Of a DNA stretch of 64,000 bases, positions 37,610-55,476 are shown in pieces (position 1 is the stretch's first letter; each line of letters opens with the position of its first letter). The stretch covers positions 96,001 to 160,000 of the forward strand of contig VMGC01000001.1 of assembly GCA_007376385.1 (NCBI GenBank), given 5' to 3'. The stretch comes from Parcubacteria group bacterium Gr01-1014_8. Lineage in GTDB: Bacteria > Patescibacteriota > Minisyncoccia > Phycocordibacterales > UBA2100. The translations under genes were made by a program, and so were the position numbers. Under the pieces are notes generated by a model, which was not told the origin of the DNA, searched no databases, and saw only the letters and a list, made by a program, of their open reading frames with translations.

Positions 37610-38080
37610 CTAGCGGTGCGTTGAAAAAAGAATGATTCCCGCTGCGACCGCGACGTTCAGGGATTCTTTAGAACCATGCATAGGAATTTCAATGAGAGTG
37701 TCGCAGGCGTTGCGGAGTTGCGATGAGATCCCCTTGATCTCGTTGCCAAAGATAAAGAATGTTTTTTTGCTCTGCTTGAAGCGACGGTAATCAATTGACC
37801 TTGTATCTTGTTCGACGCCGACGATGCGCCAGCCGTTCCTCTTGAGTTTTTTTATAAGGTGCGCAGGGGACGAACAGTATTTCCATGGGAGAGCATGCTC
37901 AGCGCCAAGCGCAGTTTTTGCGATATCTTTCCGTACGCGCCCAAAGCGGTCGATCGGCCTCGGCGTGTAGCCAGAAAGAAAAATGCGTTCAACGCCTGCT
38001 GCGTCAGCGCTGCGGAATATTGAACCGACATTATGGGTACTTCGAATGTTGTGAAGAAGAACCGCTCTCCTAGTTTTCAT
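37610..38080 (-). CDS. SpoU/TrmH-class RNA 2'-O-methyltransferase (TrmL-like)
   Basis: LLHNIRSTHNVGSIFRSADAAGV, IEIPMHGSKESLNVAVAAGIILF SPOUT motifs. Confidence 0.8.
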   Translation of the reverse strand: MKTRRAVLLHNIRSTHNVGSIFRSADAAGVERIFLSGYTPRPIDRFGRVRKDIAKTALGAEHALPWKYCSSPAHLIKKLKRNGWRIVGVEQDTRSIDYRRFKQSKKTFFIFGNEIKGISSQLRNACDTLIEIPMHGSKESLNVAVAAGIILFSTHR

Positions 38081-38208
38081 AATGATCCCACTGTAATCTC
38101 TATGCCCTTCACTGTATACCCCGTGAGATAAAACAAGAATGACTTCCTTTAGAAATCTTTGATCGATGAATATTTTGCGCGTGCTGGGACATTTTCGCTA
38201 CCTATCTC

Positions 38209-38571
38209 ATGGGGTATACTGTCCGTATGCTGTCGCTTTTTCCAGAATTACTGTTTCTTGCGCCGTTCTCCGCGCTCGTCATTCGAGTAGCGGTTGCTGT
38301 CATCTTTGCGTTCAGTGCGTGGACGAGGATGCAAAGTGAGCAGACGCTATTGAAAGTCTTTGGAGCGATTGACGCGATACTTGCTGTCATGTTTCTCTCT
38401 GGCGGCTACACGCAGCTTGCCGCACTCATTGGCGCGGTGTGCGCGATTGCGTGGCTTTCTCGCACTTCGATACGGCCGCTTCCGGTGAGCACCGTGTGGC
38501 TCGCCCTTATAATGTGTATCTCCCTTCTCGTTACCGGTGCCGGTCCATTTGCGTTCGACCTGCCATTGTAA
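38209..38571 (+). CDS. Small membrane protein (DoxX-like?)
   Basis: Four hydrophobic helices in 120 aa. Confidence 0.4.
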   Translation: MGYTVRMLSLFPELLFLAPFSALVIRVAVAVIFAFSAWTRMQSEQTLLKVFGAIDAILAVMFLSGGYTQLAALIGAVCAIAWLSRTSIRPLPVSTVWLALIMCISLLVTGAGPFAFDLPL

Positions 38572-38777
38572 AGAACCCTGCGCCAGAGAACGTAGGGTGT
38601 TAAGAAACGTCTTTCAATGCAGGACCGGGAGACCTTTCCCGGAATAGGAACGACCCGCCGGTCGCACGTATTTGAAAGCGCGTCCATTCATTCTTGCGGT
38701 AAAGCGCAACGTTCTGGATGCGACCAGTAGGAAATTGCGATAGACGTTTCGCGCGCTGCCTGTTATAAGACTAGTAC

Positions 38778-38848
38778 CCCCTGGTAGCTCAATGGTAGAG
38801 CAGCTGCCTTTTAAGCAGTTGACGGAGGTCCGATTCCTCCCCGGGGGA
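38778..38848 (+). tRNA. tRNA-Lys (anticodon TTT)
   Basis: Cloverleaf folds by hand: acceptor cccctgg/ccggggg, D arm gctc-aatggta-gagc, anticodon arm gctgc-cttttaa-gcagt, T arm ggagg-tccgatt-cctcc. Closely resembles E. coli tRNA-Lys. Confidence 0.7.
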
Positions 38849-39024
38849 AAGTTTTTTAAACTTCACACGGGAGAAGCGTGCAATGCACGCTTCGTGAAGA
38901 ATCGGACGCCGGAGCGATGTTTTGTCAGCAGACAAAACCGCGAGGCGGTGCCCAGACAAACTTTTGCGACGGCAAAAGTTTAGTCGCGGGAGATTCCTCC
39001 CCGGGGGAAAGTTTTTTAAACTTT
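38849..39024 (+). other. tRNA-linked structured element copy 1: ~145-nt hairpin-rich segment closed by a 33-bp direct duplicate of the tRNA-Lys 3' end
   Basis: Direct repeat gattcctccccgggggaaagttttttaaactt at 38832-38864 and 38992-39024. Internal conserved motifs acgccggagcgatgt, accgcgaggcggtgcccagac, agtcgcgggaga shared with copy 2. Confidence 0.6.
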
Positions 39025-39081
39025 GTATTCCGCGAAACGGGAATTTCCTATGCGAGCGTTAGCGAACAGGAAATAGGGATT

Positions 39082-40068
39082 TTAGTACACGTACGCATCA
39101 ACAGTTCGCCCGTCGTCATCAAGCAGCCGAACAACATCACGCTGGTCGCGCCAGAGTGCAGAGTCCGACTCCAGATACAAACGCCACGCCTCACGATCAA
39201 ATGAAGAGCGCATGTAGTGGCGATTCATGCATCCATTGTAGGAGAGTGTATTTTGCAAGAATGAGCGACACGCGGGGGATACAATCGATGGGACTTGCTT
39301 AGGAAACTCACACGTCGGAATGCTGTATATAAAATCGAAACACGCATCGCCATATTGGGAAAGATTTTCGGGCGTAAGCGGCAATTCACCGGAGGGGGAT
39401 GGGCAATTCAACGAGAGTGCTGGTTCAAATGTCTGGAACTGCGATATGTAACCGGTGCAAATATTTTCTCTGAAAGAAACGCCAACCGGGGAGGCGCCGC
39501 TTGCGATTATCGCGTACGCACCCGGTTCGAGCGATACCGAATTAACGGCGTTCACTGAGCCTCCTCGAAGTGGAGATGCGGCGGGAGGAAGTGCGATCCG
39601 AACCCCGGTAAGGGCGCTTTGCAAGGACCATCCTTCAAGTGAAATAGGGGTTGTGTTTTCGGCGCTTGCTTCGATGACAATATATTCGGCAGGTATGTCG
39701 GATGTTTGAGGATTTGAATATGCGCCAGAAATGTGCACGCTCCGGAAATACGGAGACGGGTCGCCGAATGTCATAACATCGTTAGGATTGCCGATGATCT
39801 CTCCGTACTGTCCTCCGGTATTTTCGGATGTTTGATCCGGGTTTGCGTTTGCCCCCGCGGCGTCCGGTCCAAATAAATCTTCTTCCTCAATGAATGAAAA
39901 AATGTTCGATGGCTGCCAGGGAAGTGCAAAATCCGTGGATGTCGAACCGGCGAAAGAGAAACTTTTTACCTGCGCGAAAATGCGTTGCGGGCCTTTATTC
40001 AATATCCATATGACAACGAGCGAGAGAATAATGAAGGCGAAGAGAGCAAGGATTATTTGCCGTATCAT
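39082..40068 (-). CDS. Membrane-anchored secreted protein with lamin-tail-domain-like segment
   Basis: N-terminal TM IILALFAFIILSLVVIWIL. PAEYIVIEASAENTTPISLEGWSLQS resembles the LTD E-[YW]-VEL-N...L-GW-L signature. Confidence 0.5.
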   Translation of the reverse strand: MIRQIILALFAFIILSLVVIWILNKGPQRIFAQVKSFSFAGSTSTDFALPWQPSNIFSFIEEEDLFGPDAAGANANPDQTSENTGGQYGEIIGNPNDVMTFGDPSPYFRSVHISGAYSNPQTSDIPAEYIVIEASAENTTPISLEGWSLQSALTGVRIALPPAASPLRGGSVNAVNSVSLEPGAYAIIASGASPVGVSFRENICTGYISQFQTFEPALSLNCPSPSGELPLTPENLSQYGDACFDFIYSIPTCEFPKQVPSIVSPACRSFLQNTLSYNGCMNRHYMRSSFDREAWRLYLESDSALWRDQRDVVRLLDDDGRTVDAYVY

Positions 40069-40072
40069 GCAC

Positions 40073-41338
40073 TTATACTACCGCACTCACGCCGCTCTTT
40101 TGCAGTTTCTCCAGCTCTTCCCTGGCAACTCCTGAATCGCTCCATGGTATTTTTGTTCCGCGCGGACCGTATATGCAGGGATCGGTACCTTTTCCTGTTA
40201 TAAGCACCGTATCGCTAGAGCGCGCGAGCTGGAGCGCATGCCTGATTGCTTCGCGGCGGTCCATACGAATTTCAGGAGACCTTTTCATGCCACGAGCAAG
40301 GCCCTCTACTATCGAGCGAGGATCTTCATCGCACGGGTCTTCGTTCGTCAAAATGACTGTTTCGCACATCCCATCAGCAATACTCCCCATCACGGGCCTT
40401 TTCCATATATCCCTGCCGCCGCCCATAGAACCGAGCACACAAATCTTTCGGCCGCGATATGCGCTGTAAATGGCGGCCAGGGAATCCGGCGTGTGCGCGT
40501 AATCAACAATGACGGTGAAATTTTGTCCTGCTTCCACGCGCTCCGCGCGCCCGGGTATATGCTTTAGCGAATCGAGGCCGCGAGCGATGACAGACGTTTT
40601 TATCTTCATAAGACGCGCCAGTGTCGCTGCCGCGAGGGCATTCGTTATGGAAAATGCACCGGGCAAATGTATGCGCAGTTCCTCTGTATCAAATTGGAAT
40701 ACGCCGCCGCGTTCATCCGTTGTCCATGAATCAAGAGAAGAAAGAGCGAATGGGATACAATGCTCTACTTGTAATCCCAGGAAACGAGAAGCCTGCGCGT
40801 CATCGGAGTTTGCCAGCATGTAGCGAGGTCTTTTGTGCGAACGTTCAAGCTGCAGTCCCAGCTGGAGTTTTGCATTGGCGTACTTTTGCAGTGACCCGTG
40901 GGATTCAATGTGTTCCGGTGCAAGGTTCAGAAAGATAAGCGCGTTCAGTTCGATTGCGCGATGACGATGTTGCCGGGCGCCTTCTGATGTCATTTCAATA
41001 AATGCAATGTTGCATCCTGCCCTCGATGCCAGGTAGAGGAATTTTTGGGTGAAAAAACGGCCCCCCATTGTCATGCGCATTAGATTCGGCTCAGAGTGCG
41101 AATCGATTTTCATTCTGATAGTGCTCACGAGCGCAGTTTTGTAGCCGGCTTCTTCAAAAATGGCGTTCAAAAATTCGATAGTGCTGGACTTGCCTTTCGT
41201 GCCAGTTACACCGACAACCATAAGTTCACGAGACGGAAACGCATACAGAGCGGCAGCGAACCACGCGAGAATGAAGTGATATGCAGAAAAAATTGGCGAT
41301 GGTATGACAGCGTGCAGGAGATTCTTCAAGGATCCCAT
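40073..41338 (-). CDS. Mur ligase family protein (MurE/MurF-like UDP-N-acetylmuramoyl-peptide ligase)
   Basis: VVGVTGTKGKSST P-loop. Start trimmed to MGSLKNLL (41338) to avoid overlap with ruvA. Central and C-terminal Mur-ligase domains by length. Confidence 0.65.
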   Translation of the reverse strand: MGSLKNLLHAVIPSPIFSAYHFILAWFAAALYAFPSRELMVVGVTGTKGKSSTIEFLNAIFEEAGYKTALVSTIRMKIDSHSEPNLMRMTMGGRFFTQKFLYLASRAGCNIAFIEMTSEGARQHRHRAIELNALIFLNLAPEHIESHGSLQKYANAKLQLGLQLERSHKRPRYMLANSDDAQASRFLGLQVEHCIPFALSSLDSWTTDERGGVFQFDTEELRIHLPGAFSITNALAAATLARLMKIKTSVIARGLDSLKHIPGRAERVEAGQNFTVIVDYAHTPDSLAAIYSAYRGRKICVLGSMGGGRDIWKRPVMGSIADGMCETVILTNEDPCDEDPRSIVEGLARGMKRSPEIRMDRREAIRHALQLARSSDTVLITGKGTDPCIYGPRGTKIPWSDSGVAREELEKLQKSGVSAVV

Positions 41339-41342
41339 ACGT

Positions 41343-41915
41343 TTATGCTGAGCCCAATATCTTAAGCGCTTCGCGCAGACGCTCGTTTGATTTTTCAATG
41401 CTGGACGGGACTTTTCGGAGCGCATCTCGCGCCTCCTGCGTCGAATATCCAAGAGCGCGCATAGCATCGAGTGCTTCCTCGTCGCCTTTAAGAGAGGCGC
41501 TTGTGCTCTCTGTTGCGCTGCCAACCTTGTCCCGTAATTCGAGCACTATCTTTTCCGCTGTTTTTTTGCCGATGCCTGATACCTTCGTCATATATTCTGC
41601 TTTTCCATGGACGATTGCGGAGCGGAGCGTCTCTATGGATGCGACATCAAGGATGGCAAGGGCGGATTTAGGACCGATCCCAGAGACAGTAAGAAGCAGC
41701 TCAAAAAAACGAAGCTCTTCTTCTTGCTCAAAGCCGTACAGGTCTAACGCGTCCTCGCGCACCGCAAGGTGCGTCCATAGGGATGCCTTCGCGCCTACGG
41801 AGAGGAGGGAAAGTATCTGTTTTGTTGCGGCGACCTTATAGCCCACTCCTCCGACGGAAATAATGGCACGTCCATCTCGGAGCGCTTTCACGATGCCTTC
41901 AAGGTGAGCGATCAT
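41343..41915 (-). CDS. ruvA: Holliday junction DNA helicase RuvA
   Basis: MIAHLEGIVK...ISVGGVGYKV N-terminal OB domain signature, HhH region. Confidence 0.85.
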   Translation of the reverse strand: MIAHLEGIVKALRDGRAIISVGGVGYKVAATKQILSLLSVGAKASLWTHLAVREDALDLYGFEQEEELRFFELLLTVSGIGPKSALAILDVASIETLRSAIVHGKAEYMTKVSGIGKKTAEKIVLELRDKVGSATESTSASLKGDEEALDAMRALGYSTQEARDALRKVPSSIEKSNERLREALKILGSA

Positions 41916-53318: not shown

Positions 53319-53627
53319 ATGCCATACAAATATCGAAAAGATTTGTACGCTGCTCAAAAGAGGCATCGTATACGAGTACGAGAAAAACTGCTCGGATTTC
53401 TTAGTACGAAACAGTGCATCGATTGCGGCGAGAAAGATCCAATTGTTTTGGATTTTGATCATATTGATAGAGCGAGTAAATCCAGAAATGTTGCGGGATT
53501 TTTATCGGGGCATTGGTCTTGGGAGTCTGTTCTAACAGAGATTCGTAAATGCGAAATCAGATGCGCCAATTGTCACCGGCGAAAAACCTATCATCAATTC
53601 GGTTCTTTTGGTAGAACTATCAAGTAG
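53319..53627 (+). CDS. HNH endonuclease
   Basis: CIDCGEKDPIVLDFDHIDRAS...CANCHRRKTY HNH/zinc motif. Ends at first nt of tRNA-Arg. Confidence 0.75.
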   Translation: MPYKYRKDLYAAQKRHRIRVREKLLGFLSTKQCIDCGEKDPIVLDFDHIDRASKSRNVAGFLSGHWSWESVLTEIRKCEIRCANCHRRKTYHQFGSFGRTIK

Positions 53628-53698
53628 CCCCCGTAGTTTAATGGATAAAACAGCGGACTTCTAAGCCGTTGATCGAGGTTCGATTCCTCGCGGGGGCA
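53627..53698 (+). tRNA. tRNA-Arg (anticodon TCT)
   Basis: Acceptor gcccccg/cgggggc, D arm gttt-aatggata-aaac, anticodon loop cttctaa (one A.G mismatch in stem), T arm cgagg-ttcgatt-cctcg. Confidence 0.6.
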
Positions 53699-53720
53699 AA
53701 AAAATGTATAGTAGGAGTTC

Positions 53721-53793
53721 GGGCGGTTAGCTCAGTTGGTAGAGCAACCCCTTTACACGGGGAAGGTCACAGGTTCGAGTCCTGTATCGCCCA
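53721..53793 (+). tRNA. tRNA-Val (anticodon TAC)
   Basis: Acceptor gggcggt/atcgccc, D arm gctc-agttggta-gagc, anticodon loop tttacac, T arm acagg-ttcgagt-cctgt. Confidence 0.7.
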
Positions 53794-53960
53794 CAAAATA
53801 GTAAACTATTTTGTGGCGGTAAGTGCGCAAACTGATTTGCGCACGTCAGGACGAGAACGCCGGAGCGATGTCGCGCGAGGACGCGCGACCGCGAGGCGGT
53901 GCCCAGACCGAGGCGAGCGGCGGCGAGCGGAGAGTCGCGGGAGAGTCCTGTATCGCCCAC
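53794..53960 (+). other. tRNA-linked structured element copy 2: ~150-nt hairpin-rich segment closed by an 18-bp duplicate of the tRNA-Val 3' end
   Basis: gagtcctgtatcgcccac at 53777-53794 and 53943-53960. Same three conserved motifs as copy 1 in the same order. Hairpins gtgcgcaaactgatttgcgcac and gtcgcgcgaggacgcgcgac. Confidence 0.6.
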
Positions 53961-54004
53961 TCTGGTTTGATAATGGTCCAGCGGTGTGTTACAGTCCTGG
54001 CCGT

Positions 54005-54451
54005 ATGGTTGCTAATAAAGTCGTTGTTTCTCCAGTCGACATGACCGCGCGAAAGGCGCTTGACGTGCGTCCGGGTGATACCGTGCGCGTGTTCCAAAAG
54101 ATAGAGGAGGAAAAGGGGAAGTACCGTCTTCAAGCGTTTGAAGGGTTGGTGTTGGCGCGAAAACACGGCACTGAAGCTGGCGCGACGTTCACTGTGCGAA
54201 AAGTGACAAGCGGTGTCGGTGTTGAAAAGATATTTCCGCTCTATTCTCCAATGATAGATAAAGTCGAGATAGTAAAGCGTGCTCGAGTGCGCCGTGCGAA
54301 GCTCTATTATATTCGAGACAAAGTTGCTCGCGAAGCGCGCCGACAACTTCGCCGCGCGAAAGTCGTGGTCCCGTTGCAAGGCGAAGTGGTTCTCGACGAT
54401 GCGGCCGAACCTGTCGCTGAAGAAGTTGGAACTCCAGAGAAAAGTGAGTAA
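54005..54451 (+). CDS. rplS: 50S ribosomal protein L19 with C-terminal acidic extension
   Basis: GDTVRVFQKIEEEKGKYRLQAFEGLVLARKH...FTVRKVTSGVGVEKIFPLYSPMIDKVEIVKRARVRRAKLYYIR. Start trimmed to MVANKV. Confidence 0.85.
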   Translation: MVANKVVVSPVDMTARKALDVRPGDTVRVFQKIEEEKGKYRLQAFEGLVLARKHGTEAGATFTVRKVTSGVGVEKIFPLYSPMIDKVEIVKRARVRRAKLYYIRDKVAREARRQLRRAKVVVPLQGEVVLDDAAEPVAEEVGTPEKSE

Positions 54452-54521
54452 TCAGGGGGCCTCTTTTTATTTGTCCACAACTGGTAGACGCTATATACTT
54501 GAGTTATGTTATATTTGTGCG

Positions 54522-55199
54522 ATGGGGAAGCGAGGACCCAAGCCTGGATTCAAAATTACACGTCGTGTCTCAGAGAAATGGACGCCGGAATTAGCATATG
54601 CGATCGGGCTTCTTGCGACAGACGGTTGTCTTGCGCGGCACCAGTCGCTAATTGATCTGACGTCAAAAGATCAGGAGCAATTGAAGAATTTCTCAAAGTG
54701 TATTGGAATTCCACTTTTCATCGGCACGAAATTTGGTAGTCACCATAAGGGCGTATATTACAGAGTTCAATTTAAGAATCTCATCTTCTATAACTTTCTC
54801 CTCTCCGTTGGTCTGACGCCGGCAAAATCGAAAACGATGGGAGCGCTTGGGGTTCCGAAAGAATATTTCTGGGACTTTCTTCGCGGATCTTACGATGGTG
54901 ATGGATGTTCATATTCATATTGGGATCCACGATGGAAATCGAGTTTTATGTTTTACACGAGTTTTGTTTCCGCGAGTCGAGAGCATATTGATTGGTTGCA
55001 AAAAGAGATTTTTGCGCGGCTCAAAATCACTGGGCACATCACGCAGGCTAAAAGAAATATCTTGTACCAACTTAAGTACGCAAAAAGTGATTCCCTGAAG
55101 TTACTGAAAAAAATGTATCACTCGAGTAAAGTTATTTGTCTTTCGCGAAAAAGATTGAAAATAGAGCGAATTTTGAGTACAGTTAGCGAGAAGCTGTAA
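54522..55199 (+). CDS. Free-standing double-motif LAGLIDADG homing endonuclease
   Basis: LAYAIGLLATDGCL (motif 1) and FLRGSYDGDGCSY (motif 2). Lies between rplS and tRNA-Leu. Confidence 0.75.
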   Translation: MGKRGPKPGFKITRRVSEKWTPELAYAIGLLATDGCLARHQSLIDLTSKDQEQLKNFSKCIGIPLFIGTKFGSHHKGVYYRVQFKNLIFYNFLLSVGLTPAKSKTMGALGVPKEYFWDFLRGSYDGDGCSYSYWDPRWKSSFMFYTSFVSASREHIDWLQKEIFARLKITGHITQAKRNILYQLKYAKSDSLKLLKKMYHSSKVICLSRKRLKIERILSTVSEKL

Positions 55200-55208
55200 A
55201 GCTTTGAT

Positions 55209-55293
55209 GCGCAGGTGGCGAAATTTGGTACACGCACTACCTTGAGGTGGTAGCGCCCTAACGGGCATGGGAGTTCGAGTCTCCCCCTGCGCA
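55209..55293 (+). tRNA. tRNA-Leu (anticodon GAG)
   Basis: Acceptor gcgcagg/cctgcgc, anticodon arm ctacc-ttgaggt-ggtag, long variable arm, T arm gggag-ttcgagt-ctccc. Confidence 0.7.
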
Positions 55294-55476
55294 CAGAATT
55301 GGACTCTTTGAGTATTTTTCTCGAATCTGTCGTTGTTTTGCGGCGTTTTTTGGCGGTTCTAACATCGTCTAATCCACAGGAGGTTGAAAATTGCAACTTT
55401 TTGAAAATAGCCCCAACTATAAAAGTGTTTGGGCGGTTCTAACTGTCTTGGCAGATTTCCTATAAGATATCTAAGT

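Follow-up and report, generated by a model that had tools for sequence, protein, structure and literature searches.

Seven tRNA genes are carried in the 64-kb stretch of DNA analyzed here (the window), and two of them are followed by a non-coding element that ends in a repeat of the host gene's own 3' end; all features described below lie on the + strand. The first host gene, tRNA-Lys(ttt), occupies positions 38778–38848 (ARAGORN; 70 bits with the Rfam tRNA model) and has an unusual T-loop, G53-U54-C55-C56. The sequence from G57 of this loop to position 73, together with a 15-nt trailer containing a T-run, makes up a terminator-like site at 38832–38863 and recurs exactly at 38992–39023, where it forms the tail of the element. 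A previous sequence-only reading of this DNA had placed an exact 33-bp repeat here at a spacing of 160; both the repeat and the 160-nt spacing stand, but its length is 32 nt, the next bases being c at 38864 and t at 39024. The second host gene, tRNA-Val(tac), lies at 53721–53794 (ARAGORN; Rfam tRNA) and the same architecture, as that reading had proposed, is found behind it: an exact 18-nt repeat (53777–53794 and 53943–53960, 166 nt apart) also begins at G57 and runs to the 3' end of the tRNA, its second copy again constituting the tail.

Between host gene and tail the parts follow in a fixed order, namely a spacer hairpin, a 5' arm, and a conserved core folded around a three-way junction. The arm is the Watson–Crick complement of the 3' strand of the adjoining tRNA, which it covers from position 53 through the 3' end and a few bases into the trailer. 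A conserved hairpin, hairpin B, interrupts the arm in most lineages, at the junction of T-stem and acceptor. Behind tRNA-Lys, the hairpin in this position (GAAGCGUGCA/UGCACGCUUC, 38873–38893; identified by inverted repeat, fold, and alignment) is an atypical variant without the ACUGCU loop, and it is followed by the second part of the arm (GAAGAATCGGAC, 38896–38907; an inverted repeat), which is antisense to tRNA-Lys positions 53–64 and whose GGAC matches the rare GUCC of the T-loop. Behind tRNA-Val, a spacer palindrome (CCACAAAATAGT/ACTATTTTGTGG, 53791–53821; inverted repeat and fold) leads into a degenerate first arm part (GTGGCGGTA) antisense to the acceptor 3' strand; hairpin B (GUGCGCAAA-CUGA-UUUGCGCAC, 53823–53844; fold and alignment, with covarying pairs) and the second arm part (CAGGACGAGAAC, 53847–53858), antisense to tRNA-Val 53–64 with two central mismatches, come next. 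These 12-nt stretches ahead of the first shared motif, antisense to the T-loop and T-stem of their own tRNA, had been overlooked in the sequence-only reading. The key feature of the element is this target-matched antisense arm, which together with hairpin B yields a tRNA-like scaffold.

The cores of both inserts belong to one family, family 1. In the Lys copy the core spans 38904–38992 (105.9 bits with covariance model R1; supported by covariation) and comprises helix P2 (38907–10/38944–47), the P3 hairpin (38914–38941), a GUG junction strand (38948–50), helix P4 (38951–57/38983–90), and hairpin D (38958–38981). The Val core (53855–53943; 81.5 bits) is a GC-rich version in which hairpin D contains tandem G.A pairs. 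That the two inserts share motifs had been noticed before and is borne out by the 20-mer CCGCGAGGCGGTGCCCAGAC, which the window contains exactly two times and which 100 shuffled versions all lack, even with three mismatches allowed. The three motifs had been described as single-stranded; they are mostly paired, corresponding to helices P2 and P4 and the strands of the three-way junction. The Val segment cgaggcgagcggcggcgagcggag likewise forms a hairpin, of 10 bp with tandem G.A pairs.

Covariance model R1, built from relatives, finds just two sites in the 64 kb, 38904–38992 (E 1.7e-21) and 53855–53943 (E 4e-16). Further copies in related CPR genomes, which the sequence-only reading had suggested looking for, number about 80 and lie behind tRNAs and tmRNA; these matches (E<=3e-4) are spread among 66 Patescibacteria (CPR) contigs. 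Within the family, 89.7% of the cells at paired positions are paired as against 69.0% after shuffling, and cells in which both bases have changed number 358 as against 122, neither value being reached in any of 500 shuffles; when partners are slid along the alignment as a control, pairing falls to about 40%. Double changes affect 23 of the 31 base pairs, and the covariation score of 0.564 exceeds both the shuffled value (0.192; 0/500 as high) and the slid controls (<=0.15). The earlier suggestion that the variable hairpins covary is confirmed by these controls, and with compensatory changes above them the element family qualifies as a structured RNA. The + strand is the folded one, as G.U combinations outnumber A.C (32 vs. 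16) and tandem G.A cells are common (107), and the minus strand was rejected as the functional strand on the same grounds. Junction nucleotides are invariant across CPR classes. Kissing between the loops of hairpin B and P3 was also considered and was not supported, no covariation between them being apparent by eye.

Elements of the family measure about 130–190 nt, in which no open reading frame (ORF) fits. The 89-nt two-armed core described above is one of at least three unrelated core types that occupy the same scaffold of arm, hairpin B, and tail, and a search with the 24 nt of hairpin B alone matched at least 120 metagenome contigs. The family is a superfamily across Patescibacteria and not a two-copy oddity. 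Copies follow at least 29 different tRNAs (29 anticodons) as well as tmRNA, for which the independent hairpin-B sample provides direct evidence, and they always lie on the strand of the tRNA. A same-strand tRNA ends 35–96 nt upstream of 46 of 58 true copies; the remaining ones stand second in an array, come after an intron-containing tRNA or a tmRNA-like 3' end, or are preceded by sequence that is masked or unresolved. At the 23 loci with a repeat of at least 14 nt, the repeat begins at position 57 in 14 and at positions 59–60 in nine, and it ends within -2 to +3 nt of the tRNA end in 19. Elements are also located between tRNAs within tRNA clusters, and tandem arrays occur. In about half of the copies the tail has decayed and the arm has not, implying either that the arm/tail helix is not always needed or that the arm serves otherwise. 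Among about 200 copies there is no tRNA interrupted by the element (1–56/element/57–74).

The arm follows its tRNA closely. It is Watson–Crick even where the tRNA itself has G.U (loci L008, L057, and L033), and it extends into the trailer, two properties on which the idea that it is a copy of the tRNA 5' strand left by tandem tRNA duplication was rejected. Rare T-loops are tracked as well, including GUCC, GUUCAAG, and the tmRNA sequence GUUCAACU. Where tRNA and tail differ, the arm matches the tRNA at 64 positions and the tail at one, although many of these positions fall in the T-loop, where the tail has the core junction instead; joint arrival of the tRNA 3' end and the arm, with the tail as the displaced resident copy, would give such a pattern. 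Copies at tRNAs without an encoded CCA have an arm that matches the genomic trailer and not the CCA end, indicating that mature tRNA was not the template. The tRNA 3' end, spacer, and arm can form perfect palindromes of up to 25 bp, and hairpin B cuts the arm into pieces of 9–13 nt. Spacers repeatedly contain GCGAAGC, a sequence that forms a very stable DNA mini-hairpin.

Known families do not account for the element. Searches of both window copies against Rfam 15 matched only tRNA, with nothing else at E<=10, and in 20 further loci the elements had no match at E<=0.05, the loci themselves containing only tRNA, rRNA, and true group I introns. Two pattern searches of viral contigs and a search of phage records gave no element match, and a literature search that included motif strings found nothing describing it; the sole related paper, PMC13011429, deals with group I introns in anticodon loops. 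The element family is apparently undescribed, and it is very widespread in CPR. Identity with tmRNA, SRP RNA, RNase P RNA, or 5S rRNA was rejected given the multiple copies, variable presence, and lack of a model match, and a riboswitch was rejected because different copies precede unrelated genes. A relationship to IS110 bridge RNA or omega RNA was dismissed, there being no adjacent recombinase or TnpB/IscB ORF, as was a MITE, since the terminal arms differ from copy to copy and match the local tRNA and the duplication is 18–32 nt. All-against-all clustering of ORFs around about 180 loci recovered housekeeping genes only (LepA, L19, SmpB, ParB, FtsH, a CCA-adding-enzyme-like protein, and a YraN-like protein recur), and no recombinase recurred within 4 kb of these loci. 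No promoter-like site was found between tRNA and element.

Several observations bear on mobility. A Kaiserbacteria relative has a tRNA-Lys gene identical at 71 of 71 positions without the element, so that the empty site anticipated by the sequence-only reading exists as regards the gene but not its downstream flank, which is rearranged. An empty allele with the same downstream flank, sought through the neighboring LTD protein and L19, was not found; relatives lack the element and both loci are rearranged, for which reason the exact insertion boundaries are those that we infer. Presence at the same tRNA varies between close relatives, and copy number varies. Sister genomes with flanks 93–97% identical differ within the element by compensatory changes. 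Saccharibacteria and Parcubacteria share an identical 24-nt hairpin D, and such sharing of variable hairpins between CPR classes points to horizontal transfer. Tandem arrays and decayed tails are further signs of mobility.

Each copy carries the host gene's 3' end in both antisense and sense form, which gives the element the appearance of a small mobile element of a new kind. The explanation we favor, tentatively and with somewhat less than even confidence, is that both sites hold a non-autonomous cassette that spreads horizontally among Patescibacteria at tRNA and tmRNA 3' ends and is transcribed into a trailer RNA resembling tRNA. On its two sides, the complete tRNA (left) and the tail (right) would act as direct repeats of some of the most conserved sequence in a genome, so that DNA consisting of tRNA, element, and tail could enter any genome with a similar tRNA. 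Insertion would require a crossover in the tRNA body and a second within positions 57–74 and would leave the tRNA intact, while a single crossover between the repeats could excise the element; uptake of foreign DNA and host homologous recombination may suffice, making an element-encoded enzyme unnecessary. As it has no promoter of its own and always lies on the tRNA strand, the element would be made as a tRNA trailer. Arm and tail are predicted to pair into a minihelix of the acceptor/T-arm type whose elbow carries hairpin B, and from this scaffold tRNA-processing enzymes could release the element with neighboring tRNAs unharmed, and the interchangeable core modules may constitute the functional payload, a putative ribozyme or protein-binding RNA. 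A miniature integrative element and a structured trailer RNA, the two possibilities raised by the sequence-only reading, would then both be possible and are probably two faces of one thing.

The cassette model nevertheless leaves several features unexplained. It offers no account of the way in which an arm comes to match each new tRNA, the arm pieces being too short for RecA-type conversion, or of the perfect palindromes at the tRNA 3' end. Against it also stand the right homology arm, which at 18 nt is short for homologous recombination, the decay of about half of the tails beside intact arms, and arm pairing that takes in the discriminator and trailer, which a normal RNase P/Z substrate does not show.

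A miniature site-specific integrative element, mobilized in trans by a chromosomally encoded tyrosine-type recombinase with its crossover site in the T-loop of tRNA and tmRNA genes, possibly on a folded single strand, would be an alternative that we regard as unlikely. The T-loop reportedly defines a class of integrase target sites in tRNA and tmRNA genes, with which the span of the repeat from G57 to the tRNA 3' end and the use of tmRNA agree; the duplicated segment thus does have the geometry of tRNA-targeted integration, as had been recognized beforehand. Arm and tail of the folded strand would rebuild the right half of the tRNA-gene duplex, much as in integron attC or the CTX-phage attP hairpin, and the tandem arrays adjoining tRNAs, the fixed orientation, the GCGAAGC-bearing spacers, and the conservation of structure over stem sequence (G.A and G.T pairs being tolerated in folded DNA too) can all be read in this way. 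Against this, the flanking direct repeat is present but no integrase gene was found within the elements or near the ~180 loci, no match occurs in viral contigs or phage records, the core/tail junction lacks a local inverted half-site, and duplex recombination would have to act on a very small circle of about 160 nt. One core family at 29 or more tRNAs would further mean that the site is read by shape or base pairing. Of the integrative element first proposed, the repeat geometry is retained and the plain attL/attR integrase model is not, as it leaves the arm, the RNA-type covariation, and the 29 or more targets unexplained.

A further reading, also unlikely in our estimation, takes the scaffold of hairpin B, arm, and tail as a natural re-programmable system for targeting tRNA genes, in which about 22 nt of base pairing could address any tRNA or tmRNA 3' end and a small RNA or folded single strand would insert itself by means of host enzymes alone or its own catalytic core, the guide arm being re-templated from the new target at each jump. 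It would represent a new class of enzyme-less, guide-bearing mobile RNA with interchangeable ribozyme-like payloads.

Rather less credence is given to a guide-bearing element moving through RNA, in which the trailer RNA, trimmed at both ends by tRNA 3' processing, would be copied by a reverse transcriptase acting in trans. On a tRNA gene with nicks at its 3' end and in the T-loop, the bottom strand would be bound by the tail of this RNA and the top strand by its arm; copying of the RNA into the gap would create the 57–74 duplication, and the arm, resembling a primer-binding site, would be re-templated by the target. The presence of both target-antisense and target-identical sequence, boundaries that coincide with the tRNA 3' end, an arm faithful down to rare T-loop variants, palindromes reminiscent of snap-back synthesis, and strong conservation of RNA structure are all compatible with such a route. 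No reverse transcriptase is linked to the ~180 loci, however, and the arm's match to the genomic trailer where CCA is not encoded also speaks against it, as does the 15-nt trailer in the Lys repeat, which looks like a DNA-level duplication; hairpin B within the arm would be hard to template. Group II introns are reported in PMC13011429 to be absent from Patescibacteria.

To a similarly small degree, the element may be a non-coding RNA module serving the host, a tRNA-like scaffold made from tRNA operons whose core binds a protein or acts on tRNA metabolism; it might, for instance, help to process trailers, serve as a decoy for toxins that attack tRNAs, or sense the partner tRNA by way of the arm. 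Invariant junction nucleotides across CPR classes, the strong conservation of the hairpin-B sequence, the location on the tRNA strand inside tRNA operons, and an arm that matches the tRNA even after tail decay would suit such a role. Its patchy occurrence does not, given that close relatives differ at the same tRNA, only two of the seven window tRNAs carry it, and copy number varies, with arrays and decayed copies; nor do variable hairpins identical across classes, a pattern pointing to horizontal transfer, or at least three unrelated cores for one type of scaffold.

An intron-like small ribozyme is very improbable. Group I introns use a P10/P1 guide arrangement, which the order of segments pairing with the 3' exon and the 5' exon, core, and 3' exon resembles: the arm would be an internal guide whose GAAC pairs with positions 53–56 before a splice site lying exactly at C56/G57, with the rest pairing with the downstream exon (the tail), so that tRNA 1–56 would be joined to the tail and reverse-splicing into T-loops might be possible. 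CPR tRNA genes are rich in group I introns according to PMC13011429, and such introns are present in tRNA genes at loci L054 and L139. The 89-nt two-armed core nevertheless lacks the P3–P9 core with a G-binding P7 (usually ~200 nt or more) on which a group I intron was rejected, with no Intron_gpI or ribozyme match at E<=10, although the same Intron_gpI model finds the true introns in L139. Splicing would serve no need, since the tRNA upstream is complete as it stands; tails have decayed in half of the cases, and the roughly 200 copies include no interrupted tRNA.

Comparison with known systems places the element between several of them. T-loop genomic islands and integrative elements, together with the cis-mobilisable elements (CIMEs) derived from them by loss of the enzyme, share the T-loop-to-3'-end repeat flanking an insert, the intact tRNA, the targeting of tmRNA, and arrays beside tRNAs, but the element has only 130–190 nt, no linked integrase, an RNA-type conserved fold, an antisense arm for each target, and one family at 29 or more targets. 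Integron attC and the CTX-phage attP hairpin are likewise small units in which structure is kept while stems vary and a hairpin rebuilds a target-like duplex; in contrast, the element shows no IntI/Xer link, has strongly conserved junction sequences, and always lies behind a tRNA. Structured RNAs with stretches complementary or identical to a target are known from IS110 bridge RNA, omega/TnpB RNA, group I/II intron guides, and the retroviral primer-binding site, but here there is no adjacent recombinase, nuclease, or reverse transcriptase and no Rfam match, and the two target-matched stretches pair with each other. Viral 3' tRNA-like structures, mascRNA, and YrlA also present a minihelix of acceptor/T-arm type that bears a side hairpin and may be a substrate of tRNA-processing enzymes, whereas the stems of the element copy the adjoining tRNA, a 90-nt module replaces the T-loop, and the discriminator is paired. 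REP/BIME, Correia elements, and other MITEs are similarly non-coding, multi-copy, co-transcribed, and hairpin-forming, yet the ends of the element are re-written for each target and are not constant inverted repeats, and its site is strictly the tRNA or tmRNA 3' end.

If real, the family would add a large unannotated class of structured RNA to Patescibacteria, a major share of bacterial diversity that is still little understood. The puzzle it poses is that of an element without genes whose antisense arm is matched to each of 29 or more tRNAs, and possible answers are a novel route for horizontal transfer with the most conserved genes as landing pads, a new family of small ribozymes, or a programmable, nucleic-acid-guided insertion system. 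There are practical consequences for assemblies and synteny as well: contigs break at the repeats, and both window copies sit at synteny breakpoints.

Two of the seven tRNA genes in the window, tRNA-Lys(ttt) at 38778-38848 and tRNA-Val(tac) at 53721-53794, are followed by a non-coding element that occurs across the CPR, is variably present, moves horizontally and carries a fold selected as a single strand. It is invariably preceded by a tRNA or tmRNA gene, from which its antisense arm and its sense tail derive. The 3' end of tRNA-Lys recurs as an exact 32-nt direct repeat (38832-38863 and 38992-39023, spaced 160 nt) and that of tRNA-Val as an exact 18-nt repeat (53777-53794 and 53943-53960, spaced 166 nt), both starting at T-loop position G57. 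A sequence-only reading of this DNA had reported duplicated tRNA 3' ends behind both genes together with motifs shared by the inserts, and the repeats, a 20-mer common to both inserts and a covariance model bear this out; the Lys duplication is exact as claimed but measures 32 nt instead of 33, base 38864 being c and base 39024 t. The shared 20-mer is confined to these two sites in the window and occurs in none of 100 shuffles, indicating that the observation is real and not due to chance. Overlooked in that reading were the 12 nt directly before the first shared motif, which run antisense to the adjoining upstream tRNA across its T-loop and 3' T-stem (GAAGAATCGGAC against GTCCGATTCCTC in the Lys copy, CAGGACGAGAAC against GTTCGAGTCCTG in the Val copy); tRNA-Lys has the rare T-loop GUCC rather than GUUC, and GGAC in its insert matches.

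Between arm and tail lies a core that is of the same type (family 1) in both window copies and folds as a three-way junction. P2 comprises 4 bp; of its middle two pairs, one occurs as 2 pair types with 20 double changes and the other as 3 with 26. Beyond a GGA/GA internal loop that never varies come the variable hairpin P3, a GUG junction strand, and P4, in which CCC-A-GAC pairs with GUC-GC-GGG. Hairpin D, of 10 bp with a GACG-type loop, exists in an AU-rich version and a GC-rich version with tandem G.A pairs, and the core ends 3' in AGUCGCGGGAGA. Observed pairing (89.7% of cells versus 69.0% when shuffled) and double changes (358 cells versus 122) were reached by none of 500 shuffles, and slid-partner controls gave about 40% pairing. 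The core alignment contains 32 G.U against 16 A.C pairs and 107 G.A/A.G cells; since G.U outnumbers A.C and the G.A cells would be C.U mismatches on the opposite strand, the plus strand is the folded one. In this covariation-supported fold the motifs once described as single-stranded are mostly helix strands and junctions, and a seemingly unstructured Val segment proves to be hairpin D in its form with tandem G.A pairs; the covariation-like changes noticed in the variable hairpins are genuine, all 11 pairs of P3 covarying.

The full anatomy was derived from about 55 genome copies. The element begins directly after the tRNA with a spacer, usually a hairpin between an A-run and a T-run, after which arm part 1 complements the acceptor 3' strand, the discriminator and 2-10 trailer bases. 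Next to it stands AGC-hairpin B-GCG (consensus AAGCNAACUGCUUNGCUU), with a covarying stem and a conserved loop; arm part 2, the complement of tRNA positions 53-65, ends 3' in UCGAAC and is followed by the core and then by the tail, the last segment, running from tRNA G57 through the 3' end. Arm and tail can pair into a minihelix like that of acceptor and T-arm with hairpin B at the elbow, and the topology is that of a tRNA with the core in place of the T-loop. The window copies are somewhat atypical, with a degenerate arm part 1 and, in the Lys copy, a hairpin B without its usual loop. In a Saccharibacteria subfamily hairpin B is missing from its usual place, the arm is contiguous and the spacer is conserved, which marks the spacer as part of the element. 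An optional small hairpin, with a covarying 3-4 bp stem (AUG/CAU, GCG/CGC, GUG/CAC) and a conserved UACU loop, may separate the core end GGGAGA from the tail (loci L005, L030, L033, L057, L059, L073, L074 and many of L094-L213 among the numbered loci from other genomes and metagenome contigs). GCGAAGC, an unusually stable mini-hairpin in single-stranded DNA, or GAGCGGAGCGAA recurs between tRNA and arm in the spacers of L015, L030, L033, L050, L066 and L075.

When two core motifs were searched for in one genome per species, 83 loci came up. About 60 are true copies, every one of them in Patescibacteria (Saccharibacteria, Paceibacterota, Kaiser-, Nomura-, Taylor-, Woese-, Yonath-, Vogel- and Lloydbacteria); the others are chance matches in high-GC genomes in which the remaining motifs are absent. 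A covariance model of 49 cores, a check that the sequence-only reading had proposed, gave exactly two matches in the window, the two copies (105.9 and 81.5 bits); across the fetched loci it gave 81 at E<=3e-4, several per contig being common. Among the 58 true copies with sufficient upstream sequence, a same-strand tRNA ends 35-96 nt (median 68.5) before the core in 46, and five are second units of tandem arrays; the remaining seven lie behind tRNA 3' ends missed by ARAGORN (L024, L039) or tmRNA-like 3' ends (L053, L068), have masked upstream sequence (L031, L036) or have no assigned upstream gene (L051). The preceding tRNAs represent 29 different anticodons. A repeat of >=14 nt is present at 23 loci; its start is position 57 in 14 of them and 59-60 in 9, and it ends within -2 to +3 nt of the tRNA end in 19 and 5-15 nt farther in 4, including the window Lys copy.

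At least two more, unrelated cores occur within the same arm/hairpin-B/arm and tail frame: family 2 begins 5' with UCGAAAGACUUUUCG and includes a CCCCC-GUA-GGGGG-type hairpin, and family 3 keeps P2 and P3 with P4 replaced by GGUCGCGA...UGUGACC. Hairpin B alone, used as a metagenome query, matched in at least 120 contigs, a sample independent of the genome copies. Of the 110 usable matches among those listed, 79 have a same-strand tRNA 4-68 nt upstream, 13 more are second units, and at least 6 follow tmRNA; a matching arm part 2 is found in 55 of the 79 tRNA-linked matches listed, and an intact tail 117-336 nt past the tRNA end in 40.

The bases of the arm indicate that it is templated by the tRNA 3' strand. 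It is Watson-Crick where the acceptor stem has G.U (L008, L057, L033) and runs on into the trailer, which rules out a copy of the tRNA 5' strand. Rare T-loops are tracked as well, among them GUCC (window Lys; tRNA-His of L027), GUUCAAG (tRNA-Leu of L076) and GUUCAACU (tmRNA of L152). Where tRNA and tail mismatch, 64 positions of the arm match the tRNA and 1 matches the tail, many of these lying in the T-loop, where the tail has the core junction. In L076 and L152, perfect palindromes as long as 25 bp are built from the tRNA 3' end, the spacer and arm part 1. The GTCCGA T-loop (G53-U54-C55-C56, instead of the near-universal GTTCGA) is present at window 38778-38848, at 4926-4996 of L087 and in L027; with C55, no pseudouridine is possible at position 55, and the variant is kept in both the window and a Kaiserbacteria relative.

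Of the kind of site without the insertion that the sequence-only reading had suggested seeking, relatives provide candidates: JACRFI01 (Kaiserbacteria) has an identical tRNA-Lys (71/71) followed directly by TTTTTG and a rearranged downstream flank, two further relatives also lack the element, and the covariance model found no match in the loci of any of the three. The Lys copy shares its 24-nt hairpin D, base for base, with copies in Saccharibacteria, Kaiserbacteria and other Patescibacteria, while stems elsewhere in the family are quite different; such identity is difficult to account for without horizontal transfer. Within one genome, copies behind different tRNAs can have near-identical cores and differing arms (L015/L031; L076), and two sister genomes with 93-97% identical flanks and an identical tRNA differ in the spacer hairpin and P3 by compensatory changes that occur in clusters. 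Roughly half of the tails remain intact, the others being truncated or diverged, and arrays in L002, L004, L008, L056, L060 and L077 retain partial tRNA 3' ends. On the minus strand of L002, an intact tRNA-Pro(tgg) about 460 nt before the core is preceded by a diverged copy of its 5' half and followed by an equally partial, diverged copy of its 3' half (variable loop to 3' end), looking as if a new copy had inserted in an older one.

Both alternatives offered by the sequence-only reading, a miniature integrative element or a trailer RNA, pointed in the right direction, but a classic attL/attR scar is insufficient: the target-matched arm, tRNA-like scaffold, modular cores and CPR-wide spread are the decisive features and exceed it. 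We tentatively favor, short of calling it probable, spread of the element as a cassette between two direct tRNA repeats, the left one being the complete gene and the right one positions 57-74. Such a cassette could be inserted by host recombination behind the same tRNA of another genome, the gene staying undamaged; the tRNA 3' end and arm would come in together, and the tail would be the displaced resident copy. As RNA, the element could form a tRNA-like trailer removable by processing enzymes, with the core as payload. Host recombination fits the repeat geometry, an arm closer to the tRNA than to the tail, and the lack of a linked enzyme, no recurring recombinase, transposase, reverse transcriptase or nuclease having been found among genes near the copies. 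It does not explain the re-writing of the hairpin-B-split arm for each tRNA or the perfect palindromes at the tRNA end, and for this reason three rivals remain. Site-specific recombination acting in trans on the folded strand is unlikely, RNA-guided retro-insertion is somewhat more doubtful again, and a small intron-like ribozyme is very improbable. An RNA role serving the host, about as doubtful as retro-insertion, is weakened by the presence/absence pattern. Rfam searches gave no matching family, at E<=10 for the two window copies and at E<=0.05 for the elements of 20 further loci, no copy was found in the viral contigs and phage records searched, and the literature searched, motif strings included, yielded nothing on the element; the two window sites are the visible tip of a class that is large and apparently undescribed.

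Elements in tRNA clusters are placed between tRNAs, and for that reason co-transcription with the tRNAs is most likely; no promoter-like site was found in the tRNA-element interval. The most recurrent non-ribosomal neighbor is a predicted endonuclease (L034, L158 and 9 others; at least 7 metagenome and 4 genome loci), which we take by eye from its sequence to be YraN-like (UPF0102), and its recurrence is probably synteny with a tRNA gene. The tRNAs upstream of two elements are called tRNA-Ser(act) by ARAGORN (L029, L074), act being an anticodon not normally used.

Both element-bearing tRNAs lie at synteny breakpoints (window 37610-41524 and 53319-55294) relative to the close relatives L084-L088 and L091-L093. 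The SpoU-ORF-tRNA-Lys block has the opposite orientation with respect to Mur ligase-LTD, and in relatives tRNA-Val is on the opposite strand with a 234-aa ORF between it and rplS; the inverted tRNA-derived arms might favor such rearrangements. Independent same-species assemblies stop exactly at the Lys direct repeat (L089, end 3575; L090, end 1418), so the elements appear to break short-read assemblies. Just 3' of the Val tail, at 53967-53995, a sigma-70-like promoter (TTGATA-17-TACAGT) precedes rplS (ribosomal protein L19; 54041-54451), whose upstream region is homologous in L091, which has no element. LAGLIDADG_3-domain ORFs adjoin tRNA genes in the window (54279-55199), L086 (3477-4343), L091 (1692-2363) and L092 (1728-2399), beginning at the first base past tRNA-Lys in L086 and lying between rplS and tRNA-Leu(gag) in the other three. 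Directly upstream of elements in L054, L024, L141 and L139 are tRNA genes with group I introns of about 200 nt in the anticodon loop, that of L139 matching Rfam Intron_gpI at 62 bits, and these agree with the Patescibacteria tRNA introns reported in PMC13011429.
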